64,000 nt of DNA, taken from NCBI GenBank assembly GCA_036495305.1, contig DASXNB010000004.1:1690-65689 (forward strand). The letters are read 5' to 3'. Below the pieces are notes generated by a model. It made no database searches, was not told the DNA's origin, and was given only the letters and a program-made list of their open reading frames with translations. Within the stretch, counting starts at the first letter, position 1. Every line of letters begins with the position of its first letter. The translations under genes and the position numbers were made by a program. Source of the DNA: Solirubrobacteraceae bacterium. Lineage in GTDB: Bacteria; Actinomycetota; Thermoleophilia; Solirubrobacterales; Solirubrobacteraceae. Below, piece by piece: positions 2,265-41,981 of the stretch.

Positions 2265-3392
2265 ATGTCCTCCACACCCTCCCCACTACACAGGCTCTCC
2301 GCGCTCGGCCAAAGCGTGTGGATCGACTCCCTCTCGCGCGAGTGGATTCGCGGGGGGCACCTGCAGAAGCTGATCGACGAGGACGTCGTAGTGGGAGCCA
2401 CTTCCAACCCCAGCATCTTCCAGAAGGCGATGAGCTCGGGGGACGCCTACGACGAGCAGCTACGCACGCTGAAGGGCACCCTAGGGGGGCAGGCAAGCCG
2501 CGCCGATGTGCAAGCCGCCTTCTGGACGCTCGCCGAGCAGGACATCAGGGAGGCGTGCGACGCGTTCCGTCCCACCTGGGACGGGGGTTTGGGCCGCGAT
2601 GGGTATGTATCGCTCGAGGTTGACCCCCGCCTTGCTTACGACTCACTGCAAACCTTCCGCGAAGCGATGCGCATCCACGAGTCGGTCGACAGACCCAATT
2701 TGCTCGTAAAGATCCCCGCCACCAAGCCCGGGCTGGCGGCCATCGAGGACGCGATCGCCAAGGGTAAGTCGATCAACATAACCTTGATCTTCTCGCTGGG
2801 GAGGTATGCGGAGGTGGCGGAGTCCTACATCCGGGGCCTGGAGCGGCTGGTGGCCGAGGGGGGCGATCCCTCGAAGGTGGTGTCGGTCGCGAGCTTTTTC
2901 GTATCGCGCATCGACACCGAGGCCGACCGTCGTCTCGATGAGGTGGGCCACGGAGAGCTCAAAGGGAAGCTGGCTGTGGCCAACGCAAAGCTCGCTTACC
3001 GCCACTACCAGCACACCTTCCAGGGCCCGCGTTGGGAGTATCTCGCCGGAAAGGGCGCCACATCGCAGAGGGTGCTGTGGGCGAGCACTTCCACCAAGAA
3101 TCCCTCCTACCCCGACACGATTTACGTGGACGAGCTGATTGGTCCGGACACGGTGAACACGATGCCCGAGGAGACGGTGATCGCCTTCCAAGACCACGGT
3201 TCCCCCAGGCCCACCCTGCACGAGGGGCTCGCGGAGGCGCAAGCGGTCTTTGACGATCTCGCCGCCGCCGGGGTTGATTACGACGACGTAACCAACACGC
3301 TCGAGCGCGAGGGGGTGGAGAAGTTCGAAGCCGCCTTCAGCGAGCTGCTCGACTCGCTCTCGGCGAAGCTCGGGACGCTCGCGCCCGCATAA
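2265..3392 (+). CDS. tal: Transaldolase (long actinobacterial type)
   Basis: LGQSVWIDSLSR, GATSNPSIFQKA and LVKIPAT motifs; lies 4 nt after tkt, the classical tkt-tal pair. Confidence 0.93.
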   Translation: MSSTPSPLHRLSALGQSVWIDSLSREWIRGGHLQKLIDEDVVVGATSNPSIFQKAMSSGDAYDEQLRTLKGTLGGQASRADVQAAFWTLAEQDIREACDAFRPTWDGGLGRDGYVSLEVDPRLAYDSLQTFREAMRIHESVDRPNLLVKIPATKPGLAAIEDAIAKGKSINITLIFSLGRYAEVAESYIRGLERLVAEGGDPSKVVSVASFFVSRIDTEADRRLDEVGHGELKGKLAVANAKLAYRHYQHTFQGPRWEYLAGKGATSQRVLWASTSTKNPSYPDTIYVDELIGPDTVNTMPEETVIAFQDHGSPRPTLHEGLAEAQAVFDDLAAAGVDYDDVTNTLEREGVEKFEAAFSELLDSLSAKLGTLAPA

Positions 3393-4434: not shown

Positions 4435-5658
4435 CTATGCGGCGTCGGCCTGTGCGATCAGCTCCCCGGCCACACGGTCGGTAGCCGCTCCGGTGCCACC
4501 GAGCAGGCGACGGGAGAGCTGGGCGCGGCGGAAGTACAGCGGGGCATCGTGCTCCCACGTCGCCCCGATCCCACCGTGTACCGAGATCATTGTGCGAGCG
4601 CCCTGGTCGAGCGCCCTCCCCGCCACCGAGCGAGCTGCGCTCGCGGCGAGCGGGAACTCTTGCGGCGCGCCGTTGCGCGACCAGCCCGCGTAGTAGAGCA
4701 GCGAGCGGCCGTTCTCGAGCTGGCGCAGCACCTCCGTGAGGGAGTGCTTCACCGCCTGGTAAGACCCGATCGCACGCCCGAACGTGAAGCGCTCCTTCGC
4801 GTAGGTCACCGACACCTCGAGCGCCGTCTCCACGCTGCCGAGCGACTCGGCCGCGATCAACGCCTGGGCCAGGTGCCAAGCACCGGCGAGCGACTCCTCG
4901 CTAGCGTCGAGCAGCGTGGCGCTTGCTTTATCGAGCGTCACGTGACCCAACGAGCGGGTGGCGTCGTAGCGGTGCACGTCCTCGATGGACACCCCCGTAG
5001 CGGATGACTCCACCGCGATGCCCACAGGCTTGCCACTTGCCTGCGCCCCGCCATGGGGTGTGCCCCCTTGTGGGGTATCCAGTAGGGCCACACCCACGAG
5101 CAGATCCGCGCCCGGGGCATCCGGCACAAAAGCGACCTTGCCGCTCACAATCGCCCCCTCGCCCTCCCGTGTCGCCACCGGCGCGGACGGGCGGGTACTC
5201 CCGCGGGCCGCGTCCACGGTCCACGCGTCGGAGAGGTCTCCGGGGGGCATGGTTGGCAGGTATGCCGCCCTGCGCTCGCCACTTGAGAGCGGCTCCAACA
5301 GGCCTCCAGCGTTTGGGGAGTCGCCGAGTAGCGCGGTAGCCGGGAGGTGCCCCAAGAGGGGAATCGCTGCCAGTACGCGGCCACACTCCCCCAAAACCAG
5401 CATCGCGTCGAAGGCGTCGAGTCCCGCGCCACCGTGAGCCTCGTCGATCAACAATCCCGGCCAACCCGCCTCACACGCGGTGGGCCACAGGTCGGGTAGC
5501 GCTTTCTCTGAGCCGCCTGCCTGCGCCCCGCCATGGGGTGTGCCCCCCTGTGTGGTATCGAGTGCCGCTCGTGCCGCCTCCAGCGTCTTCGTGCGCGAGA
5601 GCGTCCCGCGGGCCGCCTCCCGCAAAAACTCCTGCTCGTCCGAGAGTGAGAGGTTCAT
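4435..5658 (-). CDS. Acyl-CoA dehydrogenase family protein (probable non-catalytic partner subunit)
   Basis: ACAD C-terminal signature (FGRAIGSYQAVKH, HGGIGATWEHDAPLYFRRA). Overlaps the upstream ACAD gene by 4 nt. Carries two copies of the in-frame mini-element. Confidence 0.85.
   Translation of the reverse strand: MNLSLSDEQEFLREAARGTLSRTKTLEAARAALDTTQGGTPHGGAQAGGSEKALPDLWPTACEAGWPGLLIDEAHGGAGLDAFDAMLVLGECGRVLAAIPLLGHLPATALLGDSPNAGGLLEPLSSGERRAAYLPTMPPGDLSDAWTVDAARGSTRPSAPVATREGEGAIVSGKVAFVPDAPGADLLVGVALLDTPQGGTPHGGAQASGKPVGIAVESSATGVSIEDVHRYDATRSLGHVTLDKASATLLDASEESLAGAWHLAQALIAAESLGSVETALEVSVTYAKERFTFGRAIGSYQAVKHSLTEVLRQLENGRSLLYYAGWSRNGAPQEFPLAASAARSVAGRALDQGARTMISVHGGIGATWEHDAPLYFRRAQLSRRLLGGTGAATDRVAGELIAQADAA
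5038..5083 (-). repeat. In-frame GC-rich mini-element, copy 1 (encodes LDTPQGGTPHGGAQA)
   Basis: Near-identical to 5518..5563 over about 45 nt (TGCCTGCGCCCCGCCATGGGGTGTGCCCCC.TGTG.GGTATC). Homologous to copies in three other genes. Confidence 0.85.
5518..5563 (-). repeat. In-frame GC-rich mini-element, copy 2 (encodes LDTTQGGTPHGGAQAGG)
   Basis: See copy 1. Same gene, 480 nt away, same frame and orientation. Confidence 0.85.
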
Positions 5659-7008: not shown

Positions 7009-8145
7009 CTACTCGGTATCGGGGATCGGCGGCTCCGACTCCTTCGGCAGGTCGTAGAAATCCTCGAAACCGTCGTTCAGCAGCGTGCTTGCCTGCGTGC
7101 CCGGATTGGGGGAGTTGAGCAGCACCACGCCCAACCGCACCCCGTCGCGCTCGGCGGTCGCCACGAGGCACTTCCCGGCGAGTTCTGTGTACCCGGTCTT
7201 CATGCCGGTGGTGCCCGGGTAGCCGTAGATGAGTAGGGGATTGTTGTTGTACAGGTACAACTTCCCCCCCTTGATCGGGAAGGGGAGCGCCGCCTTGTAC
7301 GTGCGCACGATGTGCGCGATCCGCGGCTGCTCGAGGTCCATGTGCGCGAGCTCCGCGAGGTCGGCCGCGCAGGAGTAGTTACGGGCGTCTGTGTACCCCG
7401 ACGGGGAGGTGTAGTGGGTGCAACCCATCCCCAATCGCGCCGCTTCCTGGTTCATGCTTTGCACGAACGCGCTTGCCGTACCCGACACATGCTGGGCTAG
7501 CGCCATGGCCGCGTCGTTGCCGGAGGGAAGTAGCAGCCCGTAGAGCATCGTCTCGAGACGGACGTGCCTCCCCAGCGGCAGCACCCCCACCTTCGAGCCT
7601 GCCGAGTTCACGGCCTGCTTGGTGACGAGTACCCCTTCGTCGGGGGTCGAGCTCCGCACCACCCGCAACGCCGTCATCATCTTCGTGAGGCTCGCGATGT
7701 GCAGGTGGGTGTGTGGGTTTAGCTGCCACAACACCTTCCCGTTGTCGAGGTTGAACAGCAACCCCGCCCGTGGGGGATAGTGGAAAGCGACCTGCACCAC
7801 GCCCTCGCCTCCGCTCGTCCCCACCTCGCCCGCCTGCCCTCCGTCATGGGGGATCCCTGCGAGCGTGAGCGTGAGAGGGGGGCGCCCGAGCGGCAGGCCC
7901 GCGGGGGAGAGGTTCGGGGCCGAGTGCGACGCTCCGGGGCTGGTGTGCGTCGCTGTGCTCGTCGACGTGGCTTCGGAGCCGTGCGTGGTGGACGTGCGCG
8001 AGAGCGCGAACACCGCCGCTGCCACCGCGAGGAGCACGACGCCGGCGGCGCCGAACTGGCGCCTGCGGCGGCGTCTACGCATTTTCGCTTCCCGCGCCCT
8101 GATCGCGCGGGCACTCCGCTCCAGGAAGGGCGAGCCATGGCTCAT
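7009..8145 (-). CDS. D-alanyl-D-alanine carboxypeptidase (S11, PBP5-like)
   Basis: SxxK (ASLTKMM), SGN (PSGND) and KTG (MKTGYT) motifs; N-terminal basic plus TM signal anchor. Contains an in-frame mini-element (AGIPHDGGQAGEVGTSGGEG). Confidence 0.85.
   Translation of the reverse strand: MSHGSPFLERSARAIRAREAKMRRRRRRRQFGAAGVVLLAVAAAVFALSRTSTTHGSEATSTSTATHTSPGASHSAPNLSPAGLPLGRPPLTLTLAGIPHDGGQAGEVGTSGGEGVVQVAFHYPPRAGLLFNLDNGKVLWQLNPHTHLHIASLTKMMTALRVVRSSTPDEGVLVTKQAVNSAGSKVGVLPLGRHVRLETMLYGLLLPSGNDAAMALAQHVSGTASAFVQSMNQEAARLGMGCTHYTSPSGYTDARNYSCAADLAELAHMDLEQPRIAHIVRTYKAALPFPIKGGKLYLYNNNPLLIYGYPGTTGMKTGYTELAGKCLVATAERDGVRLGVVLLNSPNPGTQASTLLNDGFEDFYDLPKESEPPIPDTE
7801..7862 (-). repeat. In-frame GC-rich mini-element, copy 3
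   Basis: The reverse complement reads GCAGGGATCCCCCATGACGGAGGGCAGGCGGGCGAG..., about 85% identical over 33 nt to the copy in the methyltransferase gene. Confidence 0.8.
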
Positions 8146-14707: not shown

Positions 14708-15375
14708 GGCGTTCGTCTCCCAGCCGCGTTGCCCCCGACCTTGGGGCCCGGGGTTTCCGGAGTGGGGGTGGTAGTCCCAAAGTGGTGTGACTCGCGCGCG
14801 CGCGTATAAGCGGCGGCCCCCTCCAGGGAGCGCTCGCCGTGGAAGACGCGTTCGCCGACTCTCATCGCCGGCACGTCGCTCACGCCAAGTTCGGCGGCTC
14901 GGGCGGTGGCCGCCGAGAGCTGCGCGGCGGTGGAGCGCAGGTCGGCTCCCTTGAGCATTGCCGCCGGGTGCATCTCGCAGGCAGCGGCTGCGATCAGCAC
15001 GTTGTCTCGTACATCTAGTTTGCGCCCCCCGGCGAACGCCTGCCGGAAGGCGGCTTGTACGAACGGGACCACGCGGCCGATCGACTTAGCGTACGTGGCC
15101 GCTTTCATCGCAAAGACGCTGTCGAACGGGAAGGGCTCGGGCCAGCGCACGTTTTGTAGTCCGAGTTCTGCCGCACGTCGCTCCATGTCCATACGGAAGA
15201 TGTCCTCCTCTTCGCGGCAGCGAAACGCCTCGAAGGACTCCGCCCCGGGCAACTCCCGTGCAAGTACCGGCTGCCACTCGGTGGCGATGGGCATCGTTTG
15301 CAGCACCCTCTCCGCCGCCAGGTAGGCGAGCGGTGAGGCGAGGTCGAAGTAGAAGGCGGCGTCCGCAGTGGACAT
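14704..15375 (-). CDS. DsbA-like / 2-hydroxychromene-2-carboxylate isomerase family protein
   Basis: The N-terminal FYFDLASPLAYLA pattern is typical of the HCCA isomerase/DsbA fold. The C-terminal roughly 35 codons read through a REP-like repeat. Confidence 0.65.
   Translation of the reverse strand: MSTADAAFYFDLASPLAYLAAERVLQTMPIATEWQPVLARELPGAESFEAFRCREEEDIFRMDMERRAAELGLQNVRWPEPFPFDSVFAMKAATYAKSIGRVVPFVQAAFRQAFAGGRKLDVRDNVLIAAAACEMHPAAMLKGADLRSTAAQLSAATARAAELGVSDVPAMRVGERVFHGERSLEGAAAYTRARESHHFGTTTPTPETPGPKVGGNAAGRRTP
14784..14806 (+). repeat. REP-like element copy (GGTGTGACTCGCGCGCGCGCGTA)
   Basis: Matches the arms of the 54055..54117 inverted repeat and the copy at 27981..28006. Confidence 0.75.
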
Positions 15376-15385
15376 CGCTTCGAGC

Positions 15386-16789
15386 TTAACCGTGTATTAG
15401 CCAGCCGTCGGTGGCTCTGCCTGCCTCCATGACGGCCTCCGACAGCGTGGGGTGGCCGTGCACGATGCGCGCGACCTCGGCAAAGCCCCCCTCCAGTGCA
15501 CGTACGTTCACGAGCTCCTGGATCAGCTCGGTGGCGCGGGACCCCACGATGTGTCCGCCCAACAGCTCGCCGTACTTTGACTCCCCCACCACCTTCACCA
15601 TGCCCGTGCGGTCCCCGTAAACAGTGCCCCCGCCGACCGCCCCGTAGGGGACCTTGCCGACTACCACGTCGTACCCCTGCTCCTTGGCCTGCGCCTCGGT
15701 GAGCCCAAACGAGCCGACGTTGGGGGTGCAGAAGGTGGCGCGGGGGATGTCAACGTAGGAGAGTGGGTGCGTGGCGAGGCCTGCCGCGTCCTCGGCGGCG
15801 ATGATGCCCTCGTCGGAGGCCTTGTGGGCGAGCGCGGGGCCATGCACGAGGTCGCCGATCGCGTAGACCCCGGGGGCGGTGGTGCGCTGTGCGCCGTCCA
15901 CCCGCACGAGTCCCTTCTCATCGAGCTCAACGCCCGCGTCCTTCAAGCCGAGCGCGTCCACGTCGGGGCCGCGGCCGGCCGCGATCACGAGGTACTCGGC
16001 CTCACCCGACTCCGAGCCATAAGAGAAGCTCACAAAATCATCGCCTGAGTTCACGCTCTCGACCGGTGTGCCGGTGTGGACATCGATGCCCTGGCGCTTC
16101 AGCCCCCGCTCGACCAGACGCGAGATATCGGCATCCTCCGTGGGGAGCACCCGGTCGAGTACCTCGAACAGCTTCACCTCGCTACCCAACCGGGCGAAAC
16201 CAGAGGCAATCTCAGCCCCTGAGGCCCCCGCGCCGACCACGATCAAACGGGGGGGCAACTCGGGAAGCGCCCAAGCCTCCTCGGTGCCGATCACCCGCCC
16301 GCCGAACTCGACGCCGGGGATCGAGCGCTTCACCGAGCCAGTGGCGAGAATCACCGTGGTGGCGGTGAGGACTTGCTCACCCACACGCACCTTCACGCCC
16401 TCGCCTGTGCTGCCGTTGCCGCCACCATCGGGGCGCACGAGCGAAGCTTGGCCCTCGAAGAGGTCGATGGAGTTCTTCTTGAAGAGCCCCCCCACGCCGC
16501 CCACGAGCGTGGACACAACCTTCTCGCGGCGAGACTGCACTCCCCCGTAGTCGACCTCCACGCCGCTCACGTTCAAGCCGTAGTCCCCGGCCTCGCGGAT
16601 CTCGGTGAGGAGATCGGCCGAGCGGAGCACCGCCTTGGCGGGGATACATGCGTAGTTGAGGCAGCGCCCGCCCACCTTGTCCTTCTCGATCACGGCGGTC
16701 TTCTTGCCGAGCTGGGCCGCGCGGATCGCGGCGACGTACCCACCCGGACCGGAGCCGATCACGATGCAGTCATAAGAGGTGCCGTCCAT
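15386..16789 (-). CDS. lpdA: Dihydrolipoyl dehydrogenase (E3)
   Basis: GSGPGGY FAD motif, redox-active GGRCLNYACIPAK, C-terminal HGHPTLSE. Confidence 0.95.
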   Translation of the reverse strand: MDGTSYDCIVIGSGPGGYVAAIRAAQLGKKTAVIEKDKVGGRCLNYACIPAKAVLRSADLLTEIREAGDYGLNVSGVEVDYGGVQSRREKVVSTLVGGVGGLFKKNSIDLFEGQASLVRPDGGGNGSTGEGVKVRVGEQVLTATTVILATGSVKRSIPGVEFGGRVIGTEEAWALPELPPRLIVVGAGASGAEIASGFARLGSEVKLFEVLDRVLPTEDADISRLVERGLKRQGIDVHTGTPVESVNSGDDFVSFSYGSESGEAEYLVIAAGRGPDVDALGLKDAGVELDEKGLVRVDGAQRTTAPGVYAIGDLVHGPALAHKASDEGIIAAEDAAGLATHPLSYVDIPRATFCTPNVGSFGLTEAQAKEQGYDVVVGKVPYGAVGGGTVYGDRTGMVKVVGESKYGELLGGHIVGSRATELIQELVNVRALEGGFAEVARIVHGHPTLSEAVMEAGRATDGWLIHG

Positions 16790-16866: not shown

Positions 16867-17373
16867 CTACGCCTCGTCTGGCATTCCCGCGCGATCGCCC
16901 GCCTGAATGCGGCCCATCACGCGCACCAACTTCCAGAACAACCACCCCGACAGCCCGATCGAGACGACGCACAATCCGGCCGCGAGCAGCGTCTCGGCGA
17001 CAACCAGCGCCATCGAGGTGACGATGATCTGGAAGGCGAGTAGCGCCTCGAAGGAGAGTACGGCCCAGTAGCGGCGCTCCCACATGCCTCGCGCTAGTAG
17101 CAACAGCACGCCGGCCAGGAACAACCCGCCCGGCAGCGACCCGCCGTGGCGGGAGAGGTTGTGGACTGTGAGCACGCTCATCAGCACGGCGAGGGCCAGC
17201 GCGCTCGCGACGGCCATGGCAACGAGCAGGGCGCGCGGTCGCTCGCCGGGGGCCAGGGGGGCCAGGGGGGGCGGAACGGGGAGGGCCGGCGCTCGACGCG
17301 GTCTGTCACCGGCGTCTGCCCCCGCATCGATGCTCGCCCGCGCGGCGTCGGGCGCTGGACGATCTGTGAGCAT
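16867..17373 (-). CDS. Hypothetical multi-pass membrane protein
   Basis: Start set to ATG 17373 (MLTDRP); four hydrophobic segments. Confidence 0.45.
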   Translation of the reverse strand: MLTDRPAPDAARASIDAGADAGDRPRRAPALPVPPPLAPLAPGERPRALLVAMAVASALALAVLMSVLTVHNLSRHGGSLPGGLFLAGVLLLLARGMWERRYWAVLSFEALLAFQIIVTSMALVVAETLLAAGLCVVSIGLSGWLFWKLVRVMGRIQAGDRAGMPDEA

Positions 17374-17504
17374 GGTTTGGAGCCTACCGCGTCCCCAACG
17401 GTGGCCATCGGGTGGAGGGCCGCGTCGACTGGCGCTCGTCGAGAGCAGCGGAGACCGTGCTCCGGACTTTTGCAAGCCAGGTGGAGCACGGTCTCACTTC
17501 TGCC

Positions 17505-18470
17505 TCAGCCGCTGAAACCCAGTTCGTTGTTGGGCTCAAGGCCGTGGGTGATGAGTATTTTCAGCCTCACGACCGGTTCGGGGGTGACCGTTTTTTTGAT
17601 GTAGGCGATTTCAAAAGTGCAGACTTCGTTAAGCGCATAAGTTAATTTCCTGCACGTTTCAAGTTCTTCGAGATTGACGGTGAAAAAGCCTGCGCGGAAG
17701 GCGCCCGCCGTAAGGGCTGCGGGTTTGCCGGTTAGGAAGATATCCTTTACTTCTATCGTGCGTTTTTCTCCCGTTTTCGTGAAAATTCCGCCGGGATTTT
17801 TGAGTTCAAAGCAGGGAAAACCGGCAAGGCACGCAAACCCCGCAGCCAGTTCTTTTCCACTGGGGTCTTCGAGGAGGTCGATGCCCGACATTAAGCCTTG
17901 GGCACTGCCGCCGAGCGTGCAGTTGTAGGCTTCGGCTGCGAGTTCGGTTTCGAATATGACGTTTATCCCGGATGGCGCGGCTTCGATCATGTGCGTGGTT
18001 TCACCGGTACATTCGTCGGTGATTTTTATGCCCAGAATCGTGCATTCCACCTTCAAACCGGGTGTTCCGGTTCCGCCACTTGAAATTTTGTCTAAAAAGA
18101 AAGCTTCTTCCCCTGGTTCCATGAGTTGGGTTTTCCAGGGCAGGTGCAACGCGGTGATTTTGATCGTGCCGGCGCCGCATCCGCCCGTGACTGGTGTGCA
18201 TTCTGACATAGTGAATTTGGTGAGTTCGCCTTTGCCGCCCGCGTTTACATTGCCTTCGTCACTGCCTTTGCATGCCACCGCCACGGCTCCGGATGGTGTT
18301 TTCATGTCTTCGATTCGTATAGTTTCGGCGATTTTGGATTTTACGGCTATGGTTTCTTTAACGGGTGTTTTGTTCAGCTCCCATTCGAGTTCTTCGCCAA
18401 ACGCCGGGGTACAGGCGACAGCGCACGGCAAGCAGAGCCCGATCAGGATTGTTGCCAGCTTGGTATACAT
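17505..18470 (-). CDS. Cys-rich secreted (lipo)protein, unknown function, low GC
   Basis: Signal/lipobox-like N-terminus MYTKLATILIGLCLPCAVAC and many Cys. Local GC about 47-50% by hand count against about 70% in the flanks. Confidence 0.6.
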   Translation of the reverse strand: MYTKLATILIGLCLPCAVACTPAFGEELEWELNKTPVKETIAVKSKIAETIRIEDMKTPSGAVAVACKGSDEGNVNAGGKGELTKFTMSECTPVTGGCGAGTIKITALHLPWKTQLMEPGEEAFFLDKISSGGTGTPGLKVECTILGIKITDECTGETTHMIEAAPSGINVIFETELAAEAYNCTLGGSAQGLMSGIDLLEDPSGKELAAGFACLAGFPCFELKNPGGIFTKTGEKRTIEVKDIFLTGKPAALTAGAFRAGFFTVNLEELETCRKLTYALNEVCTFEIAYIKKTVTPEPVVRLKILITHGLEPNNELGFSG

Positions 18471-18681
18471 TGAATGTCTCCGTTCTATCCGGCCTGCCTA
18501 GTGCTCGGAAAAGGTCGGCCTGGAGTGGTGGCGCTCCGGCGGGCAGTGCCTGCAGGGCGCCTGGGAGACGAGCGTTACCAAACTAAAGATGTGAATACAA
18601 GGCCGTTGCCCCGCAAGGGCCGCATTTGTTTCTGATGCTGCAAAATGTGTCCGCCAACGCGCAATCGAACTGAACGGGCGA

Positions 18682-19398
18682 TCAGCCCAGCCCGTCACCG
18701 CGGGAGTGCGGGCCGAGCTCGAGCGCCGCTCTCAACGTGAGCGCCGCTCGCTCGGGGTCGCGGGCGTCGGAGATGGCGCGCAAAACGCACACGCGGGAAG
18801 CGCCCGCGTTGAGCACCTGGCTGACATTTTCTGAGTCGATACCGCCGATGGCGAAGAAGGGGACGTGGGCGTGGGCTGAGGCGTAGGCCACCAGCTCCCT
18901 ACCGACGGGGATTCGGCCTGGCTTCGTAGGCGTCGCGTGGACGGGCCCGACACCGATGTAGTCCACATAGGGGGAGCCGTCAGGAGAGGTGGGGAGCGCC
19001 GTGTCGATCTCCGAGGGGGCGTGGGTGGAGAGTCCCACGAGCATGTCGGGGCCGACGATCTTGCGGGCCTCGGCCACCGAGATGTCGTCCTGCCCGAGGT
19101 GTACCCCGTCGGCGCGCACCGCGGCGGCGATGTCGGGGCGGTCGTTGAGAATGAACAGCACGCCGTGCGCGTCGCAGGCATCGGCGGCGACGGAGGCGGC
19201 TTCGGTTAGGAACTCGTCCTCCAGGTTCTTCTCACGCAGTTGCACCACGTCCACCCCACCGGCGATGGCGGCGGCGAGGAACTCAAAGAGGTCGCGTTCG
19301 CCGGGCATGCAGTCGCACACCAGGTACAGGCGGGCGGCGGCAAGACGCGCGCGGCGCTGCTCGCCATTGGGATCGGGGACGGGCCGCAGGTGGGCCAT
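18682..19398 (-). CDS. thiE: Thiamine-phosphate synthase
   Basis: LYLVCD, VVQLREK, GVHLGQDD, IGVGPVHATPTK, FAIGGI. Start trimmed to ATG 19398. Confidence 0.9.
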   Translation of the reverse strand: MAHLRPVPDPNGEQRRARLAAARLYLVCDCMPGERDLFEFLAAAIAGGVDVVQLREKNLEDEFLTEAASVAADACDAHGVLFILNDRPDIAAAVRADGVHLGQDDISVAEARKIVGPDMLVGLSTHAPSEIDTALPTSPDGSPYVDYIGVGPVHATPTKPGRIPVGRELVAYASAHAHVPFFAIGGIDSENVSQVLNAGASRVCVLRAISDARDPERAALTLRAALELGPHSRGDGLG

Positions 19399-19516
19399 GC
19401 GCGCAGTCTGACACTTGCGGGGGGATGTTCCGGAGTTGATCCATATCGCGGTTTGGCCCGGCGGAGGTGTATAGGCACAGAGGAGCCGCGGTGGGGTGCC
19501 CTCTAGCATCAGAACC

Positions 19517-23247: not shown

Positions 23248-24875
23248 GCGCTCCCGTGCAAGCGGGAGCGAAGCTCGCCGCCAACGGCCTCGATACTGGC
23301 GAGGACCCTGGCGGGCAGGCGCTCCCCAAACGGCCCGAGCGGGGCGATGAGATCGAGTTGCACATCGATTCGCTCGCCCACGGCGGCGAGGGAGTGGGTC
23401 GTCTCACCCTTCCGGGTACCCCCCATGACGGGGGGCAGGCAGGCGGCGATACCCCATCCGGGGCACACGGCGGCGGATACGTGGTATTCGTCTCGGGTGC
23501 ACTGCCCGGCGACCATGTGAAGGCGCAGATAGTCAAGCGCAAGCGCAGCTACGCGCACGCGCGACTTGTGGAGATCGTGCAGGAGAGCCCCGAGCGTATC
23601 CCCCCCACCGCAAAGCACCCGGGGGTGGCGTGGCAGGTGTTGCCCTACGAGCGCCAGCTGCAGATCAAGAGTGAGCAGGTGGAGGATGCACTGCGGCGGA
23701 TCGGCAAGCTCGACGGCTTTGAGATGCAGGAGATCGTCCCGGCGGTGGAGCGGTGGCGCTACCGCAACAAGCTGGAGTATTCGTTTGGGAAGGGCCCCGA
23801 CGGAGAATTGGTGTGCGGCTTTCACGCCCCGTCGGGTTGGAACGCGGTGGAGCAGATCGAGGATTGTTTGCTCGCGTCTGAGCGTGGCAACCAGGCTCGC
23901 GAGCTTGCGCTGCGGTGGTGTCGCGAGCAGAATCTGCTCCCCTGGAGCCGGGGCGGGCGCCCTGGCGGTGGGCGGGCGCAGTTGGAGGATCTCGGCGGAG
24001 ACCCCGTTGACAGCGAGAGTCCTCAGCGGCGCTCGCGCGAGGAGCGCACTGGCCCCGCACCCGACGGGAGACCTTTCCTGCGCAACCTCGTGGTGAGAGA
24101 AGGCCGCCACAGCGGCAGGTTGCAGATCCGGTTGGTGAGCACCGATGGCGAGTTGGACGTGCCAACGCTCGCGGCGGCGCTCGTGGCGGAGTTGGGCGAG
24201 GAGACTGTGAGCGGGGTGCTGTGGACACGCTCCTCATCGCTCGCCGAGACCACGATGGGAGGCGAGACGGAGCTCGTGTGGGGCGAGGCCGAGTTGCCTG
24301 AGCGTCTCGCCTATCCCGCCCTTGGGAGGGAGCTCGACCTACGGATCTCCTCTGAAGCGTTCTTCCAAACGAACACCGAGATGGCGGAGGCGCTGTACGG
24401 GATCGTCACCGATTACGCCGCTCTGGAGGGGTGGGAGCGTGTGTATGACCTCTATTGCGGGATCGGCACGATCGCACTCACGCTCGCCCCCCACGCCGGT
24501 GAGCTGTGGGGGATCGAGATCGTGGAACAGGCCGTGGCGGACGCAATCGCGGCGGCCAAGCGCAACGAGGTGACCAGCGCGCACTTCTTCGCCGGCGACG
24601 CCCGCCTCGCGCTGCCTGAGCTACTCGAACGTGCCGGTAAGCCCGACGTGGTGGTGGTGGATCCGCCCCGCGCGGGCCTCTCGCAAAAGGTGGTGCGCCG
24701 CATCATCGACGCCTCGCCCAAGCGCATCGTCTACGTCTCCTGCAACCCCACCACACTCGCCCCCAACGCCGCGCAACTCGTGGAGGCGGGCTGGCGCCTG
24801 GTGAAGGTCCGTCCGGTGGATATGTTCCCGCAGACCCCCCACATCGAGTGCGTTGCGATGCTCGAGCGGGGGTAG
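23244..24875 (+). CDS. 23S rRNA / tRNA (uracil-5)-methyltransferase family (TRAM + SAM MTase)
   Basis: TRAM-like N-terminus; FFQTN, DLYCGIGT, VVVDPPRAG, YVSCNP. Two insertions, one of which is the mini-element. Confidence 0.85.
   Translation: MSAPVQAGAKLAANGLDTGEDPGGQALPKRPERGDEIELHIDSLAHGGEGVGRLTLPGTPHDGGQAGGDTPSGAHGGGYVVFVSGALPGDHVKAQIVKRKRSYAHARLVEIVQESPERIPPTAKHPGVAWQVLPYERQLQIKSEQVEDALRRIGKLDGFEMQEIVPAVERWRYRNKLEYSFGKGPDGELVCGFHAPSGWNAVEQIEDCLLASERGNQARELALRWCREQNLLPWSRGGRPGGGRAQLEDLGGDPVDSESPQRRSREERTGPAPDGRPFLRNLVVREGRHSGRLQIRLVSTDGELDVPTLAAALVAELGEETVSGVLWTRSSSLAETTMGGETELVWGEAELPERLAYPALGRELDLRISSEAFFQTNTEMAEALYGIVTDYAALEGWERVYDLYCGIGTIALTLAPHAGELWGIEIVEQAVADAIAAAKRNEVTSAHFFAGDARLALPELLERAGKPDVVVVDPPRAGLSQKVVRRIIDASPKRIVYVSCNPTTLAPNAAQLVEAGWRLVKVRPVDMFPQTPHIECVAMLERG
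23405..23478 (+). repeat. In-frame GC-rich mini-element, copy 4 (about 1.5 units; LPGTPHDGGQAGGDTPSGAHGGG)
   Basis: GGTACCCCCCATGACGGGGGGCAGGCAGGCGGC is about 88% identical to the fadE-like copies. The following GATACCCCATCCGGGGCACACGGCGG matches the 5' part of those copies. Confidence 0.85.
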
Positions 24876-27980: not shown

Positions 27981-28006
27981 GCGCGCACGCGCGCGCGAGT
28001 CACCCC
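27981..28006 (-). repeat. REP-like element copy
   Basis: The reverse complement GGGGTGACTCGCGCGCGCGTGCGCGC is almost identical to 54055..54080. Intergenic, between the ino1 stop and the PHP-fusion start. Confidence 0.8.
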
Positions 28007-32560: not shown

Positions 32561-32783
32561 GGCCGAGCCGCCGAACAGGCGCTAGCGGCCTAAACCGCCG
32601 GGAAGAACCGCGCAGAGCCGGGCAGAACGCCCGTCTGAACGCACTTGCGCGCACCGCCGTTCGCGGCGATGCGCGTACCGCTCGTTGTAGTCGCGGCGCG
32701 TATATGTGCGCGACCCGTTTGTCCTTGCCCGCCGCACAGGCGCGGGTTTCGTGTGGCGTGCTCCTACAGGAGGGGATGATCTC

Positions 32784-35189
32784 GTGCTGAGCCTTGCAGA
32801 AGTGACCACCCGCAAGACAACCAGGCTGATGGCGCTGGTCGCAGCGGCACTCCTCGCGTTTGCCGCCCTCGCGACGCAATCGTGGGGAAGCGCGGGGTGT
32901 CACAACGAACAGTTCCGCACGGGGCTGGGAGCGAACCTTCCGGACTGCAGGGCATACGAGCAGGTGTCGCCGCAAGAAAAGAGCGCGGGCGGAGTGGACG
33001 GCGGACTGGCCGCCGCAACGCATCCGGGACCGGAGCAGGCCGCGGACAACGGTGAAAGCGTGACCTACGAGTCGCAGACCGCATTTGCGGGAGCCGACCC
33101 TCAGAGTGCGCTCCTGAGCAATCAATACATGTCGCGGCGTACCGCGAACGGCTGGAGCACAACCGCGATAACGCCGCCACAGGAACTTGAAAACGGCAAG
33201 ATCAACATCAGCCCGGGGAGCGTTTACTACTCGCTCTACCAGGGCTTCGGATCGAATCTCGAATACGGGTATCTCGTTGCCTCTAAGCCGGCACCGGTGA
33301 AAAGCGCTCCCGCGGGTTACTCGATGCCCTATCTGCACAACAACTTCAGCGGCAAGTATGCGCTTTTGGCCGAAACCGCTCCGCCGGTCGTGGCGCCTCT
33401 GCCAGGGACCTGCTGTAGGGGTCTCAAAACGAACTACCAGGGTATGACCGCCGATGGAAGCCATGTGATTTTCGAAGCCAATGACGCGCTCGTACCCGGC
33501 GCGTTTGAAGGAAACGAGAATCTCTACGAGTGGAATGAAGGAACATTGGAACTCGTCAACGTTCTTCCAAATGGAGCGGTTGAACTCGGCAGATTCGGTA
33601 TGAACGGTTGGGAAAAATTTCCACCCGAACTCACCAACAACGCTCTTTCGAGGGACGGTAAGCGTGCGTTTTGGTCGACTAACAACGGCGAAGGCACCAA
33701 AGGCCAAGTTTACATGCATGAAATCACTCCTTCCGGACCTCGCACGGTAGACATTTCCGCTACCCAGAAGACAAATGGAAGCGGACCCGAAGGACACGAT
33801 CCGGGCGGAACGGGGCAGGCGCAATACTGGGCCGCAAACGCCGAAGGGACTCTTGTCTACCTGACCAGCCCGGAGCAGCTCACAAACGAAGCAACGGCGT
33901 CATATCGGCCTTTGCAGTTCGTGACAGGGACCAGCCCGGCCATCGAAGGCGATCTGTACCAGTACAACGTGGGAACCGGGAAACTGACAGATCTGACCGT
34001 CGATGAAAACACAGGCGAAAGAGCCGGTGTGCAGGGCGTCATCGGCGCGAGCGAAGACGGCTCCTACGTGTACTTTGCCGCCAAAGGCGTGCTCGCGAAT
34101 GGTGCGGTGGCCACCTCGTCAAACGACCTCAGGGCGGCAAATATCTACGTTTGGCACGACGGCGAAATCAAATTCATTGGTACTACCGACGCCCACAGCC
34201 AGTATCTCTTTGGCGAAGACGAGGAGTGGGGCTCAGCAGCAGGCGAGGTTGGCGCCCGCGTGAGTCCGAACGGAAAGTATCTCGCGTTTACATCGGTGTC
34301 GCAGTTCGGCAGTCACAATACGGAACCGGCGACTTCCCAAGCCTGTGTGCCGAAGGTGGGTGAGGAAGCCATCCTCAACTACCTCAATTACTTCACCAAC
34401 AACGGCAAACGATGCACGCAAGTGTACGTTTACGACGCCGCCACGGCCGAACTCACCTGTGCCTCATGCGCGCCCGCTGGACTTCCGTCAACGGGCGACT
34501 CTTATGTGCCGCACGGGATCGGACTTGAACCGGTGCCTGGATGGCAGGAGTCCAGCGATCAGCAGCGCTACCTCTCGAGCGACGGACGCCTCTTCTTCGA
34601 GAGCTCTGCCGGATTGGTGGCCGGCGATACGAACGGAAACGAGGACGTATACGAGTGGGAGCCGGCGGGTGTGGGCGGGTGCTCGGGTGCAAGGCCGTGT
34701 CTGAGCCTCATATCCGGTGGGGTCAGTGCACGCGAATCGCAGTTCGTGGACGCCAACGCCACGGGCAGCAACGTCTTTTTCATAACCTTTGACCAGCTCG
34801 CCGGCAGCGACGGCGACGAACATCAGGACCTCTACGATGCGCGTGTCGACGGCGGATTTGTGGCGCCGCTGGCTCCCCCCTGTCAGGGCGAAGTATGCAG
34901 GTCGGCGGTCACGCCCGCTCCGGCGATCTACGGGGCGCCCACAAGCCAGGCGTTTAGCGGTGTTGGCAACCCTTACAACGAAGCGTTTGCCCCCAAGAGC
35001 GTAAAGAAGGTGAAGGGCGCCAAGTCGAAGATCGAGACAAAGCGGCGCACCGCCGCGCTGAAGCGCTGCCAAAAGATGAAAACCATCAGCCAGAGAAAGC
35101 GCTGCAAGCAACGCGTAAACAGTAAGTCCGCAAAGAACGCGCGGACCGGGCATGGACACGGCAAGCAGGGTAACGGGAGGGGCAAGTGA
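32784..35189 (+). CDS. Secreted PD40/TolB-like beta-propeller protein with polybasic C-terminal tail
   Basis: GTG start 10 nt after AGGAGG; signal peptide LMALVAAALLAFAALATQSWG. Seven blade-like units (SxDG...F ... (D/N)xYx(W/Y): ENLYEW, GQVYMH, GDLYQY, ANIYVW, TQVYVY, EDVYEW, QDLYDA). K/R-rich last roughly 64 aa. Confidence 0.75.
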   Translation: MLSLAEVTTRKTTRLMALVAAALLAFAALATQSWGSAGCHNEQFRTGLGANLPDCRAYEQVSPQEKSAGGVDGGLAAATHPGPEQAADNGESVTYESQTAFAGADPQSALLSNQYMSRRTANGWSTTAITPPQELENGKINISPGSVYYSLYQGFGSNLEYGYLVASKPAPVKSAPAGYSMPYLHNNFSGKYALLAETAPPVVAPLPGTCCRGLKTNYQGMTADGSHVIFEANDALVPGAFEGNENLYEWNEGTLELVNVLPNGAVELGRFGMNGWEKFPPELTNNALSRDGKRAFWSTNNGEGTKGQVYMHEITPSGPRTVDISATQKTNGSGPEGHDPGGTGQAQYWAANAEGTLVYLTSPEQLTNEATASYRPLQFVTGTSPAIEGDLYQYNVGTGKLTDLTVDENTGERAGVQGVIGASEDGSYVYFAAKGVLANGAVATSSNDLRAANIYVWHDGEIKFIGTTDAHSQYLFGEDEEWGSAAGEVGARVSPNGKYLAFTSVSQFGSHNTEPATSQACVPKVGEEAILNYLNYFTNNGKRCTQVYVYDAATAELTCASCAPAGLPSTGDSYVPHGIGLEPVPGWQESSDQQRYLSSDGRLFFESSAGLVAGDTNGNEDVYEWEPAGVGGCSGARPCLSLISGGVSARESQFVDANATGSNVFFITFDQLAGSDGDEHQDLYDARVDGGFVAPLAPPCQGEVCRSAVTPAPAIYGAPTSQAFSGVGNPYNEAFAPKSVKKVKGAKSKIETKRRTAALKRCQKMKTISQRKRCKQRVNSKSAKNARTGHGHGKQGNGRGK

Positions 35190-38014
35190 TGCGGAGGGCG
35201 CTGACAGCATCGATCATGGTAGTTGCGGCTGCGCTGGCTGTGGCCGCACCGGCGTTGGCTGGGTTCGGCCTGGCCGAAGAACACGGGTTCGAAGTCTCGA
35301 TTACCAACCAGGACGGCACACCCGACACGCAGGCGGGTTCGCATCCCTTTGCGTTTACCACGACACTCAATTTGAACACCGAAGGCACTGGAGGCAAGAT
35401 TCACGCGGCGGGCGGGGACGTGCGGGATGCAGTGCTGGATCTTCCGCCCGGTCTCGTGGGTGACACCAGTGCGGTTCCGACATGCTCGATTGCTGCTTTC
35501 ACGAAGACGGAACTCAACTTCGGTGACAGCCACCCTTGCCCCGACGATACGCAGGTGGGGGTGATAAATCTCCAGCTCAACGGTTTTCCACCGGCAGAGC
35601 CGGTGTACAGCTTGACGCCTCCCAAGGGCGATCCGGCAGAGTTCGGGTTCATCGCGCTGACCTCACCGGTGGTCATAGTGCCCTCCGTGCGGACGGGCCG
35701 CGACTATGGCGTGAGTGCCACGGTCCCAACGATTCCCGAGGCCTTCTCGATGGTGAAAGCCGAACTGACGCTCTGGGGCGTGCCGGGCGACCCCGCGCAC
35801 AACGAAGAACGGGGAGGGTGCTTGAAAGAATTCGTGGAAGAACCCAACGAAGGCGAATGTCCCGTCAGCAACGCGCCGCGTCCGTTCTTGAGCCTGCCGA
35901 CCTCATGCACAGGTCCGCTTCATTGGTCTGCACGGGTGGATTCTTGGGAAGAACCCGGCGTTTGGAAGACAGCGGAAACGACCACTCCCGGTATGACGGG
36001 TTGCGAGAGGATCGGCTTCGCTCCGAACCTTCAGGTGCAAGCCGAACCGGCCGAGGCGGCCTCGCCGAGCGGGTTGAGCGTTCAGATCAATGTGCCACAG
36101 ACGTACGAAGACCCGTCCGGCCTGGCGTCGGCGAACCTCAAGGACACGACCGTGACGTTGCCCGCGGGTGTGGCACTGAATCCGTCGGCGGCCGACGGTC
36201 TGGCGGCTTGCGGCGAAGCGCAAATGGGCCTGCACGACGCGGCGCCGGCGCAGTGCCCTAATGCGTCGAAGGTGGGCACGGTTGAAATCACGACGCCATT
36301 GTTGGGACATCCGTTCTCGGGCGGTGTGTACCTGGCACAGCAGGGCAACCTGCCCGGCAACGGCAGCAACCCGTTCGGTTCGCTGCTGGCGATCTATATC
36401 GCCGCGGAAGATCCGATCTCGGGTGTGATCGTGAAGCTCGCGGGCGAAGTCAAACCTGATCCCGCCACCGGGCAGCTGGTCACGACTTTCCTTGACAATC
36501 CGCAGCTGCCGTTTGACAGCTTGAAGCTGAGCTTTTTCGGCGGGCCGCGCGCGCCGCTTACCACACCGACATTCTGCGGATCGTATGCGGCGACTACGCA
36601 GATGACGCCGTGGAGCGGCGGCGCATCCGCTACGCCGGGGGGCTATTTCACCATCGCCTCCGGACCGGCCGGCTCGGGGTGCTTGAGCTCGGAAGCGTTC
36701 ACGCCGTCGTTGGTGGCGGGTACGACCAGCAACCAGGCCGGCGCGTTTACGCCCTTTACGTTGACGATGAATCGCAACGACGGCGAACAGAACCCGTCGC
36801 GTATCCAGGTCACCACGCCGCCGGGTTTGTTGGGGCAACTCTCCGGCGTAACGCTGTGCGGGGAACCGGCGGCGAGGCTCGGGACGTGCGCTGCGGAGAG
36901 TTTGATCGGACACACGACGGTGGCCGTAGGTGCAGGCAGCAACCCGTTCTATGTCACGGGCAACGTGTACCTGACGGGGGGCTACAACGGCGCGCCGTAC
37001 GGGTTGTCGTTTGTGGTTCCGGCTATAGCGGGACCGTTGAACCTGGGTACGGTGGTGGTCCGCGCGGCAGTCGATGTCGATCCTACGACGGCTGCGTTGA
37101 CGGTCACAAGCGAACCGCTGCCGCAGATCCTGCAGGGTATTCCCTTGCACATCAGGGCGGTGAACGTGACGCTCGACCGGCACGATTTTATCATCAATTC
37201 AACGAATTGCGCGCCTATGGCGCTGCGAACGACGATGACCGGCGCGCTGGGCGGCGTCGACACGGTCGAGACGCACCTGCAGGTGACCAACTGTGCGGTG
37301 CTTGGGTTCAAGCCGCAATTCCACCCCTTTGTTTCCGGGCGTAACTCGCGTCAACGCGGCGCCGCCCTCGACGCGCGCTTGAGCTATCCCAAGGGCGCGG
37401 AGGGCAGGGAGGCCAACATCGCGAAGGTGCGGGTTGAACTGCCAAAGCAACTGCCATCGCGGCTGGAAACGCTTCAGAAGGCGTGCCTCGACGGTGTCTT
37501 CAACCGCAATCCCGCGGAATGCCCCGCGGCTTCGCGCGTCGGGATCGCGCGAGCCAGGACGCCGGTGCTGCCGGTGGAGCTGGAAGGCACCGTGTTCTTC
37601 GTATCCCACGGCGGCGCGAAGTTCCCCGACCTCGTGGTGGTCCTCCAGGGATACGGCGTTCGTGTAGATCTGGTCGGCAGCACGTTCATCAGCTCCGCGG
37701 GTGTCACCAGCACCACGTTCGAACAGGTCCCGGATGTGCCCGTGGAAAGCTTCGAGCTGTATTTGCCACAAGGCCGTTATTCGGCGCTCGCCGCCAACGG
37801 GAACCTCTGCAAGCACCTAAACATGCTGATGCCTACGGACTTCCAGGCGCAGAACGGCAAGACGATTCACCAGTCCACACGGATCAAGGTCACCGGGTGC
37901 GCGGCAAAGTCAGCGCGCAGCGCGCGTCTGCGTCATCAACAGCAGAAATACCGAGGCAAAAACGGTCGGACAGCCAGTCACGGTCGTACCGCCGACAAGA
38001 GGGGGCACCGATGA
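35189..38014 (+). CDS. Secreted 941-aa protein of unknown family, basic C-terminal tail
   Basis: ATG overlaps the upstream TGA (TGATG); a GTG at 35186 is also possible. [10 protein letters not shown]; signal peptide ...AVAAPALA. I recognise no motif from a characterised family. Confidence 0.75.
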   Translation: MRRALTASIMVVAAALAVAAPALAGFGLAEEHGFEVSITNQDGTPDTQAGSHPFAFTTTLNLNTEGTGGKIHAAGGDVRDAVLDLPPGLVGDTSAVPTCSIAAFTKTELNFGDSHPCPDDTQVGVINLQLNGFPPAEPVYSLTPPKGDPAEFGFIALTSPVVIVPSVRTGRDYGVSATVPTIPEAFSMVKAELTLWGVPGDPAHNEERGGCLKEFVEEPNEGECPVSNAPRPFLSLPTSCTGPLHWSARVDSWEEPGVWKTAETTTPGMTGCERIGFAPNLQVQAEPAEAASPSGLSVQINVPQTYEDPSGLASANLKDTTVTLPAGVALNPSAADGLAACGEAQMGLHDAAPAQCPNASKVGTVEITTPLLGHPFSGGVYLAQQGNLPGNGSNPFGSLLAIYIAAEDPISGVIVKLAGEVKPDPATGQLVTTFLDNPQLPFDSLKLSFFGGPRAPLTTPTFCGSYAATTQMTPWSGGASATPGGYFTIASGPAGSGCLSSEAFTPSLVAGTTSNQAGAFTPFTLTMNRNDGEQNPSRIQVTTPPGLLGQLSGVTLCGEPAARLGTCAAESLIGHTTVAVGAGSNPFYVTGNVYLTGGYNGAPYGLSFVVPAIAGPLNLGTVVVRAAVDVDPTTAALTVTSEPLPQILQGIPLHIRAVNVTLDRHDFIINSTNCAPMALRTTMTGALGGVDTVETHLQVTNCAVLGFKPQFHPFVSGRNSRQRGAALDARLSYPKGAEGREANIAKVRVELPKQLPSRLETLQKACLDGVFNRNPAECPAASRVGIARARTPVLPVELEGTVFFVSHGGAKFPDLVVVLQGYGVRVDLVGSTFISSAGVTSTTFEQVPDVPVESFELYLPQGRYSALAANGNLCKHLNMLMPTDFQAQNGKTIHQSTRIKVTGCAAKSARSARLRHQQQKYRGKNGRTASHGRTADKRGHR

Positions 38015-41102: not shown

Positions 41103-41981
41103 TCAGCTCGCCAGCAGGAACTCAGCCACCCGGTCGATCGCGTCCGGGCGGTCAAACCACCACCAGTGCCCAGCGTCGGGCAGCTCGAGCAACTCGCTGT
41201 TCGGCAGCGCCTTCGCGTACTCGGCGGCGAAGTGTGGGGGAATGTAGGGGTCGGCCATCCCCCACACCACGAGTGAGGGCATGGTGAGCAGCGAGAGGCG
41301 CTCGCCCGCCTTCGCCAGCACCTCGCTGGGGGAGCTACGGTAGAGGCGGAGGATGGCCCGCTGGGTGCCCTGGTCGAAGTGGTCGAGGACCGTGTCCAAC
41401 CAGGTCTCGGGCATCGGACCGGGCTTGAAGTTGCCCTCACGTGAGGTGAACCGCAAGATCGGGCGGGCGGTGGCGCCCATGACCAGCTCCCCCAATCCGG
41501 GGGTGCGCCAGGCGCGGGCGGTGCGGTGCCAGTCATATCCGGGGAGGAACGTGACGGCGTTGGTGACCACCAGCCGCTCAATCCGCTCCGGGTGGGCTTG
41601 TGCGAAGGCGAGACCCACGGCACCCCAGTCGTGCACCAGCATCCTGACCTTCTCCACTTCCACCATGTCGAGAAACCGCTCGATGAAGGCGGAGTACTCC
41701 TCGATCGTGTACTTCAGGTACCCCGGCTTGCCTGAGCGCCCGAAGCCGGGCAGGTCGGGCGCAAGGCCACCGGTGCGCTCTAGAAAGCCCGGCCCATAAG
41801 GCGGAGGTTCAACCCACTGATCTGAGGGGCGCTTTGCCCGCCACCAACGTCGCCACCACGAGCGCGTGGCGTGGCGCTCGCGAGGAGAGATCCAGTCGTC
41901 GGAGTTGGTCGGCACGCCGTGCAGGTACAGCGCGGGCGCGGCCGGCCCTTCCGTGGGGGCGCTGCGCCAGAAGACGGGCAT
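41103..41981 (-). CDS. Alpha/beta hydrolase (haloalkane dehalogenase-like fold)
   Basis: LHGVPTNSDDW, PDLPGFGRS, nucleophile elbow VHDWGA, C-terminal GHWWWFDRP. Start set to ATG 41981 to avoid overlapping the divergent gene. Contains a W/R-rich insertion. Confidence 0.75.
   Translation of the reverse strand: MPVFWRSAPTEGPAAPALYLHGVPTNSDDWISPRERHATRSWWRRWWRAKRPSDQWVEPPPYGPGFLERTGGLAPDLPGFGRSGKPGYLKYTIEEYSAFIERFLDMVEVEKVRMLVHDWGAVGLAFAQAHPERIERLVVTNAVTFLPGYDWHRTARAWRTPGLGELVMGATARPILRFTSREGNFKPGPMPETWLDTVLDHFDQGTQRAILRLYRSSPSEVLAKAGERLSLLTMPSLVVWGMADPYIPPHFAAEYAKALPNSELLELPDAGHWWWFDRPDAIDRVAEFLLAS

Follow-up and report, generated by a model that had tools for sequence, protein, structure and literature searches.

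In-frame selfish repeats, i.e. short dispersed sequences that enter genes and are translated with them, have so far been recorded chiefly in Rickettsia and in a small number of Gram-negative genomes. The Rickettsia palindromic elements (RPEs) are dispersed units of about 100-150 bp that lie in frame in many unrelated conserved genes and have no transposase coding (PMC10969869). A second class comprises the repetitive extragenic palindromes (REPs) tagged by GTAG or CGTC, palindromes of 20-40 bp that are sometimes intragenic, as in Opitutus terrae, in Thauera and in the RPE-4 and RPE-6 families of R. conorii (Di Nocera et al. 2013, PMC3733652). Intragenic REPs are found as single units, dimers or clusters, encode 20-80 residues, sometimes occur twice per open reading frame (ORF) and have been argued to reside in linkers or loops (PMC3733652). 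Finally, the palindrome-associated transposable elements (PATEs) derived from IS200/IS605 insertion sequences, as well as the REPs mobilised by REP-associated tyrosine transposases (RAYTs), have neither terminal inverted repeats nor target duplications and are characterised by hairpins near their ends, a short preferred target and strand asymmetry (PMC6006769, PMC8266576). Here we report a family of very short, modular repeats found in a 64,000-nt stretch of DNA from a Solirubrobacteraceae bacterium (contig DASXNB010000004.1), hereafter the window, and in related soil actinobacteria. Our overall interpretation, which we regard as likely, is that it constitutes a miniature, non-autonomous DNA repeat family that spreads at the DNA level within Solirubrobacterales genomes. 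A search of the literature returned no description of the element sequence or of Solirubrobacterales repeats.

The canonical unit consists of ACCC-N4-6-GGGC (module 1) followed by ACCCCCCATGRCGGGGGGCAGGCRRGC (module 2), spans 39-42 nt or 13-14 codons, and is read in frame 0 as the hydrophilic, Gly/Pro/Thr/His-rich peptide T-x-x-G-G-T-P-H-(D/G)-G-G-Q-A-G. It is assembled from units of 18-24 nt that follow the pattern (C)ACCC(C)-loop-GGG(G)CA, so that each half of the composite is a small hairpin made of a C-run, a loop and a G-run. Units occur solo, paired or stacked, adding 7, 14, 20 or 26 residues to the host protein. The solo unit is exemplified by ACCCCATCCGGGGCAC..., and other arrangements include module 2 alone and a third unit read as HPEGH(K/R); in L148 and L033, two of the loci fetched for comparison (designated by L numbers throughout), the 18-nt 3' tail is amplified in tandem. 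In an alignment of the copies at their core, high information content extends from about -17 to +26, with background levels beyond. The modules are stacked head to tail on one strand, and the two ends, ACCC... and ...CAGGCRRGC, are not inverted repeats of each other.

The inventory of the window comprises five clear copies, two solo modules and one decayed, tandem-amplified relic in purF, a rough density of 1 per 16 kb as against about 1 per 50 kb in the other family loci. The original prediction, made from the letters of the window alone, started from two near-identical segments of an acyl-CoA dehydrogenase (ACAD) gene, and these were recovered by a repeat finder, which aligned 5032-5083 with 5512-5563 at 90% identity over 52 nt; the 18-nt ACAD core occurs twice in the window against 0.12 occurrences expected from shuffles. 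Both insertions are 42 nt long and lie on the minus strand: TPQGGTPHGGAQAS at 5035-5076, between LLD and GKPVG (site 2), and TTQGGTPHGGAQAG at 5515-5556, between ALD and GSE (site 1). They have the variant CACACCCC..GGGGCGCAG in common. The presence of the same DNA in a PBP5-like gene and in an RNA methyltransferase gene was likewise confirmed, with 81% identity across 43 nt between the PBP copy (7827-7869) and that of the RNA methyltransferase (23403-23445) and 88% across 34 nt between the latter and an ACAD copy. In the PBP5-like gene the insertion LAGIPHDGGQAGEVG (7817-7866, core 7828-7866, minus strand) occupies the N-terminal region, upstream of a Peptidase_S11 domain that begins at residue 129. 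In the RNA methyltransferase a canonical 39-nt unit, TLPGTPHDGGQAG, lies in the TRAM domain (23406-23444, plus strand), as indicated by the repeat pairs and by the spacing of the TRAM profile. A profile built from these four copies recovers just those four in the window, all on the sense strand of the host and in the frame G(T/I)PH(D/G)GGQAG. Pfam assigns the hosts to unrelated families, namely Acyl-CoA_dh, Peptidase_S11 (D-Ala-D-Ala carboxypeptidase), TRAM with tRNA_U5-meth_tr and, for purF, the PurF GATase domains.

The present analysis adds to the earlier set a transaldolase copy, two solo modules and the modular 18-24-nt build itself. The transaldolase copy (RTLKGT-LGGQAS; 2466-2498, plus strand) is decayed, a 6-nt internal deletion having removed the loop and the His codon, and gives a weak nhmmer match at 2465-2503; the orthologous position holds a full copy in L151, L074 and L047. 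One solo module, ACCCCATCCGGGGCACACGGCGGC (TPSGAHGG; 23451-23474, plus strand), lies directly 3' of the canonical unit in the RNA methyltransferase gene. The other (DTPSGARGG; 41982-42009, minus strand) is situated upstream of the alpha/beta-hydrolase domain in a long ORF (41103-42161), and its translation hinges on which start codon that ORF really uses. The two solo modules are 93% complementary, and an insertion found in lpdA of L003 opens with a solo module that has the same loop as that at 23451-23474. Rfam gave no family matches anywhere in the window.

A degenerate core, CCCCATGRCGGNGSGCAGGC, was used to scan contigs of one genome per species in GTDB, and the counts that follow are among the matches listed, with taxon labels taken from the titles of the records. 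At least 119 loci match this core, about 47 of the listed matches being labelled as Solirubrobacterales or Solirubrobacteraceae metagenome-assembled genomes (MAGs). Conserved family flanks are confined, among the listed matches, to those MAGs, with the sole exception of L051, a 2.8-kb contig labelled Anaerolineales; the other core matches, from Proteobacteria and other groups, are without conserved flanks and look like chance. A stricter 26-nt pattern yielded 30 further loci from metagenomes and no match in viral contigs, where there is thus no sign of a phage vehicle. Collapsing orthologous sites left at least 53 non-redundant ones, drawn from MAGs of Solirubrobacterales and from soil metagenomes, so that the search for further copies proposed with the original prediction turned up both the copies and the expected orientation bias, about 43 being sense and 5 antisense. 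The proteins of the window match those of Solirubrobacteraceae MAGs at 85-100%. By its DnaK, part of the window was located on a contig of JGI soil metagenome 3300036845, whereas an exact look-up of the ACAD protein gave no record. The host genes are unrelated and represent more than 20 Pfam families; they include ACADs, a carboxyltransferase, HemA, CysG/HemD, DNA polymerase III delta', NuoG, LeuRS, MurT, a chorismate-binding enzyme, PFOR, IDH/IPMDH, ribosomal protein L19, an aminotransferase, PurB, RibBA, CarB and enoyl-CoA hydratase. At the peptide level, a padded 43-column profile run against an index of 5.8 billion proteins gave 163 candidates and 1 match, a word index being ill-suited to a 10-residue motif. 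An 8-kb locus (L022, from Solirubrobacterales MAG MFD06092.bin.1.125) holds five copies or relics on one strand, one of them in the C-terminus of glutamyl-tRNA reductase, a cluster far denser than the other loci.

Comparison of orthologues, eight of the fetched loci being syntenic with the window, bears directly on whether the segments were gained. L151, the closest relative among the matches listed (ACAD nucleotide identity 86.5%), is without both ACAD copies, showing clean 42-nt gaps between GAY and GGC and no target duplication. It is also without the PBP copy (a 45-nt gap; the copy is absent in L047 as well) and carries the full transaldolase copy as its only copy in 21 kb. In L081, ACAD site 1 is empty and site 2 is filled, as it is in the window. 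A census of 121 ACAD sequences, the window plus 120 orthologues at 75-89% identity, found site 1 empty in 96 and site 2 empty in 79, the filled states clustering at +7, +13/14, +20 and +26 residues. Other genes alternate in the same manner: the transketolase N-terminus is filled in L017 and empty in the window and L074, lpdA is filled in L003 and empty in the window, and the purF loop is filled in the window and empty in L103. Wherever filled and empty alleles could be compared, they differ by a seamless in-frame indel after a pyrimidine-ending codon (typically CTC GAY), without target-site duplication, and the three empty sites of the "GAT" class (both ACAD sites and lpdA) read CTS GAY followed by G. 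The transketolase site, flanked by GCGAGC on both sides, is ambiguous as to duplication. In the window, a Gly/Ser/Ala-rich variable segment of transketolase (about 1800-1950, residues ~590-640) differs in sequence from its counterparts in L074 and L081, which are 10-20 residues longer or shorter, and is another hypervariable loop in a core enzyme.

On these alignments the segments are best described as insertions and not as ancestral loops, an outcome that favours the prediction of a mobile or recombinogenic mini-element. The alternative, in which they would be lineage signature indels lost many times, could draw on the transaldolase copy common to the window, L151, L074 and L047 and on the ACAD site 2 copy common to the window and L081. 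However, the majority ACAD state is empty, a 14-residue purF base state recurs widely among 120 orthologues, PDB and Pfam homologues are without the segments, and DNA that is nearly identical between unrelated genes cannot have been ancestral in every one of them; this explanation is largely refuted and retains very little credit. An assembly or sequencing artefact of GC-rich homopolymer hairpins is more improbable still: all sources are metagenome assemblies and C6/G6 runs are error-prone, but assemblies made independently in different projects carry the insertions at matching orthologous positions, always in frame and with quantised lengths.

The purF stretch (61458-61585, plus strand; NGTPAEGGQS...), put forward earlier as a diverged copy, is supported indirectly. 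It lies in a loop of PurF that is hypervariable, has a 36-nt period repeated in tandem (2.6 copies), and was not detected by the DNA profile scan of the window. Nevertheless, the sequence GGA ACC CCC GCG GAG GGT GGG CAG matches the core at 18 of 27 positions, and some orthologues carry the canonical TPHDGGQA, or HPEGTRQAG, in the same loop, whose length ranges from 14 to 88 residues among the 120 orthologues with a 14-residue base state, ALGVIEASEDGPER, recurring in many of them. The stretch is absent in L103, and tail amplification of a similar kind is seen in L148. It is best read as a probable decayed and amplified element copy.

The distribution of the family over strands and frames is markedly uneven. 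About 33 of the 53 listed sites are sense and in frame 0, about 10 are sense and in frame +1, none is sense and in frame +2, about 5 are antisense and about 4 are non-coding or ambiguous. The sense to antisense ratio of about 43:5 gives p = 1e-8 and the six-frame distribution a chi-square p = 1e-19; about 48 of the 53 could be assigned a coding frame, and some 90% of sites are intragenic. The claim that every copy follows its host in a single frame therefore stands for the four window copies and is too strong for the family, in which the +1 sites and a few antisense or non-coding ones depart from it. Stop codons explain part of the frame bias: the ACCCTGAAGGGC subfamily has a TGA in frame +1, the GAC variant has one in frame +2, and the ACCCCATGA subfamily, with a TGA in frame 0, occurs in frame +1. 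They offer no explanation of the strand bias, because all antisense frames are open. The frame-0 sense peptide has a Kyte-Doolittle value of -1.2 to -1.4, whereas antisense reading yields peptides that are hydrophobic or include Cys or Trp. In the window, the switch in gene direction coincides with that in GC skew, and the orientation of the element relative to replication and to genes is inseparable there; the cumulative GC skew minimum falls at about 17000-19500, where gene orientation changes from minus to plus, and could mark a replication origin or a mere operon boundary. As regards the intergenic copies, L139, L143 and L149 represent one orthologous site in three metagenomes at which an ATG followed by the element forms an ORF of about 19 codons (MRTLTGTPHGGGQAGGNGR*) upstream of a gene; this may encode a leader peptide or be no more than a non-coding copy.

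The codons CCC CAT GRC GGG GGG CAG GCA are used in every copy, although CAT makes up 12% of His codons, GCA 9% of Ala codons and GGG 28% of Gly codons in the genes of the window. The same DNA is also read in another phase: module 2 in lpdA of L003, placed inside a solo module, is translated in frame +1 as APPMTGGRQ, one of about 10 sites in all with the reading ..APPM(T/A)GGRQ... The constancy of rare codons, together with the occasional reading of the same DNA in a second frame, places the homology among the copies at the level of DNA and not of peptide. That we are dealing with a dispersed, DNA-level element tolerated in frame is, in our judgement, very probable. One could instead suppose that G-T-P-H-D/G-G-G-Q-A-G is a selected functional motif (a modification, recognition or metal site) acquired repeatedly, as the strong one-frame bias and its occurrence in many enzymes would allow. 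Against this, the invariant rare codons indicate identity of DNA and not convergence, about 15 of the 53 listed sites are +1, antisense or non-coding, most close orthologues of each host are without the motif, and the inserted residues drift freely: in orthologues the His is replaced by Lys, Leu, Arg, Asp or Pro, and the motif is not conserved. We hold this explanation to be very unlikely and infer that the inserted peptide has no function of its own.

In the host proteins the copies probably occupy loops, as was proposed earlier. In the RNA methyltransferase, the 59 positions of the TRAM profile are spread over 78 residues by Pfam. An AlphaFold model of the ACAD, a weak one (42 close orthologues, mean pLDDT 51) used for local secondary structure only, places site 2 (pLDDT <50) between strands E186-193 and E210-217 (pLDDT 88-92) and site 1 in a coil between helices. 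Many copies are close to a terminus (within 10-50 residues), and those in L137 and L146 supply the start of the ORF. Surviving genic copies are thus predicted to sit in loops or near termini.

A hairpin in the core, as originally proposed, is indeed present: CCCCCC-ATGAC-GGGGGG offers a 6-bp G:C stem with a 5-nt loop, in addition to a 3-4-bp stem. Its predicted folding is no stronger than the base composition would lead one to expect (z about -1), as detailed below. A variant that alters both partners of one stem pair (C-G to A/C, with a G.T wobble on the opposite strand) was found in three copies in two unrelated genes and never as a single change, in a collection whose search pattern fixed most stem positions; it is suggestive of base pairing. 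Wobble pairing as proof of which strand folds was dropped as anecdotal for the same reason.

How, then, does the family compare with the described systems? Like the RPEs, it inserts in frame into unrelated genes (about 33 of the 53 listed sites share one sense frame, over more than 20 Pfam families), adds a peptide that may be compatible with the fold and has no transposase coding capacity. Compared by description, it differs in that the unit measures 39-42 nt and is built from 18-24-nt modules, against about 100-150 bp for an RPE, in that its hosts are a free-living, high-GC order of soil actinobacteria and not an alpha-proteobacterial intracellular parasite, and in that a given site may be empty, half, full or stacked depending on which close relative is examined, whereas RPE insertions are largely ancient and fixed. 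With intragenic REPs it shares short repeats within genes, possibly palindromic and sometimes two per ORF. Unlike REPs, which are tagged at one end, it has no terminal GTAG or CGTC in the consensus or in the 53 aligned listed copies, CGTC being present only within the loop of the GAC variant; and about 90% of its sites are coding with a strong sense bias, whereas REPs are mostly extragenic and often form inverted dimers. Miniature derivatives of IS200/IS605 resemble it in the lack of terminal inverted repeats, the absence of duplication and the seamless empty site (both ACAD sites and lpdA), but the unit is far shorter than described PATEs, its 5' flank varies by subfamily and no cognate Y1 transposase was found (1.1 Mb searched, low power). 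From classical miniature inverted-repeat transposable elements it is set apart by ends that are not inverted repeats and by ACAD and lpdA sites that show no duplication. Palindromic repeats of short length inside genes are a known kind (PMC3733652), but the Solirubrobacterales family is new; it is a new variant and not a member of the RPEs or REPs, because neither the length, host and sequence family of the former nor the terminal tag and extragenic bias of the latter are found. The earlier statement that nothing like it was known for high-GC Gram-positives is to be qualified in that intragenic palindromic repeats have been described in other phyla (PMC3733652).

With regard to mechanism, units would be moved by a single-strand, hairpin-recognising HUH/Y1 enzyme of the REP/RAYT or IS200/IS605 "peel-and-paste" type, and selection would then remove copies in other frames or orientations, where they bring stop codons or hydrophobic, Cys- or Trp-containing peptides. 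The HUH/Y1 route is suggested because gain and loss are seamless, duplications are missing, a 5' flank may be preferred, the strands are used asymmetrically and hairpins lie near both ends. We put forward mobilisation by an HUH-type step tentatively, as the leading possibility, though one that falls well short of an even chance. One candidate for a flanked transposase, L046, was discarded, as its two inverted core matches 1.3 kb apart enclose ftsZ and are without family flanks.

The main rival dispenses with a dedicated enzyme and lets host replication, repair and recombination spread and lose the units, through ectopic gene conversion or template switching via short flanks (CTCGAY..GGC, GAGC), hairpin-promoted slippage and tandem amplification. 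It gains from the behaviour of the two ACAD sites, which have a 12-nt flank, CTCGAYGGCAAG, in common when empty and tend to evolve in concert within a genome (GGAQA at both in the window, the half-form at both in L047), a pattern that points to intragenic gene conversion. Tandem tail amplification in L148 and purF, indels bounded by GGCA..GGCA repeats, the GAGC found on both sides of several copies and the failure of that low-power search to detect a transposase all agree with it. On the other hand, a microhomology of 3-6 nt is a weak guide for bringing a 39-nt unit into more than 50 unrelated sites in different genomes, and the insertions are precise and seamless. Moreover, subfamilies with their own loops recur at unrelated loci, as propagation from master copies predicts, and the strong strand asymmetry would need an additional explanation. 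On balance we regard an enzyme-free origin as unlikely, albeit the most serious of the rivals.

Several points weigh against our interpretation of a DNA-level repeat family spread by a dedicated route. Folding energies are not unusual relative to shuffles of equal composition (z from -0.03 to -1.4, with DNA or RNA parameters and on either strand). Conservation of the core is partly by construction, the copies having been collected with an exact core pattern of 20-26 nt, and the frames at the loci were called heuristically from third-position GC (GC3) periodicity and open frames and not by a gene finder. A neighbour-joining tree of ACAD calls for at least 19 state changes at site 1 and at least 31 at site 2, a rough parsimony count that any recombination inflates, and the recurrent change at these two sites could stem from recombination between lineages and not from insertion and excision. 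Over all sites the 5' flank is not one motif, reading GAT, CGC, AGC, CTC or GGC by subfamily. GAGC stands on both sides of a subset of copies, as a short duplication or as part of the element; its acceptance as a target-site duplication is precluded by inconsistent in-frame lengths. Finally, a tblastn search of 1.1 Mb of loci (8-21 kb each) with Y1/TnpA and RAYT sequences found no transposase, at low power.

A bolder version of the HUH hypothesis can be formulated, which we consider improbable: the mobile unit would be one hairpin, some 20 nt long and able to insert itself within earlier copies at ..GGGCA^C, and a domesticated single-strand HUH enzyme, working on the non-template strand of genes under transcription, would excise it precisely and insert it again, so that its movement is reversible. 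Were this true, the unit would be among the smallest mobile DNAs known, and the Solirubrobacterales would carry within their genomes a means of generating disordered loops and linkers in their core enzymes. Whatever the route, the family shows in-frame repeats in an abundant and poorly studied order of soil actinobacteria, where they are much more dynamic and modular. That one loop of an essential enzyme can be empty, half, full or stacked among relatives of 75-89% identity provides a natural series for the tolerance of disordered insertions in conserved folds, which bears as well on the origin of hypervariable low-complexity loops such as that of PurF. Such inserts will confuse the alignment of orthologues, "conserved signature indels" and domain detection, as may be seen in the host ACAD, whose middle domain is not called by Pfam. 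Should a cognate enzyme come to light, single-strand transposition inside genes could be studied on a very small substrate.

Two further sites had been proposed as degenerate relatives. That in lpdA (16390-16430) was rejected because its DNA does not resemble the element. It encodes 11 Gly-rich residues (DGGGNGSTGEG) that are missing in the orthologue of L003, and is an indel in its own right. The grpE N-terminus contains a module-like ACCCC..GGGG palindrome and stays a candidate. Between the dnaK stop and the JGI-called grpE start (47400-47500), a direct repeat, CAGCCCACC(C/G)CCG..CA(A/G)GGGGTGG(G/A)CCCCG, is present twice, encodes QPTPDQGVGPAG and QPTAGQGVDPGG, and contains a perfect 8-bp palindrome, CCCACCCC-GATCAA-GGGGTGGG; because the JGI call starts grpE downstream of it, the repeat may be an N-terminal extension of grpE or a 5' leader.

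Additional features of the window were noted in passing. The region 32706-39882 has a lower GC content (0.61-0.64 versus about 0.67) and carries three very large ORFs of 827, 942 and 799 aa, two without a Pfam match and the third with a weak fn3/PhoD_N-like match only; it may be an acquired island or a set of cell-surface genes. A second, unrelated repeat, GGGGTGACTCGCGCGCGCG, occurs at 14784-14802, 27988-28006, 54055-54073 and 54099-54117 with at most one mismatch (4 occurrences versus 0.34 expected). Two of its copies, 25 nt apart and inverted relative to one another, stand immediately upstream of purB, another separates a glycosyltransferase/PHP gene from an inositol-1-phosphate synthase gene, and the repeat may be a regulatory or REP-like site.

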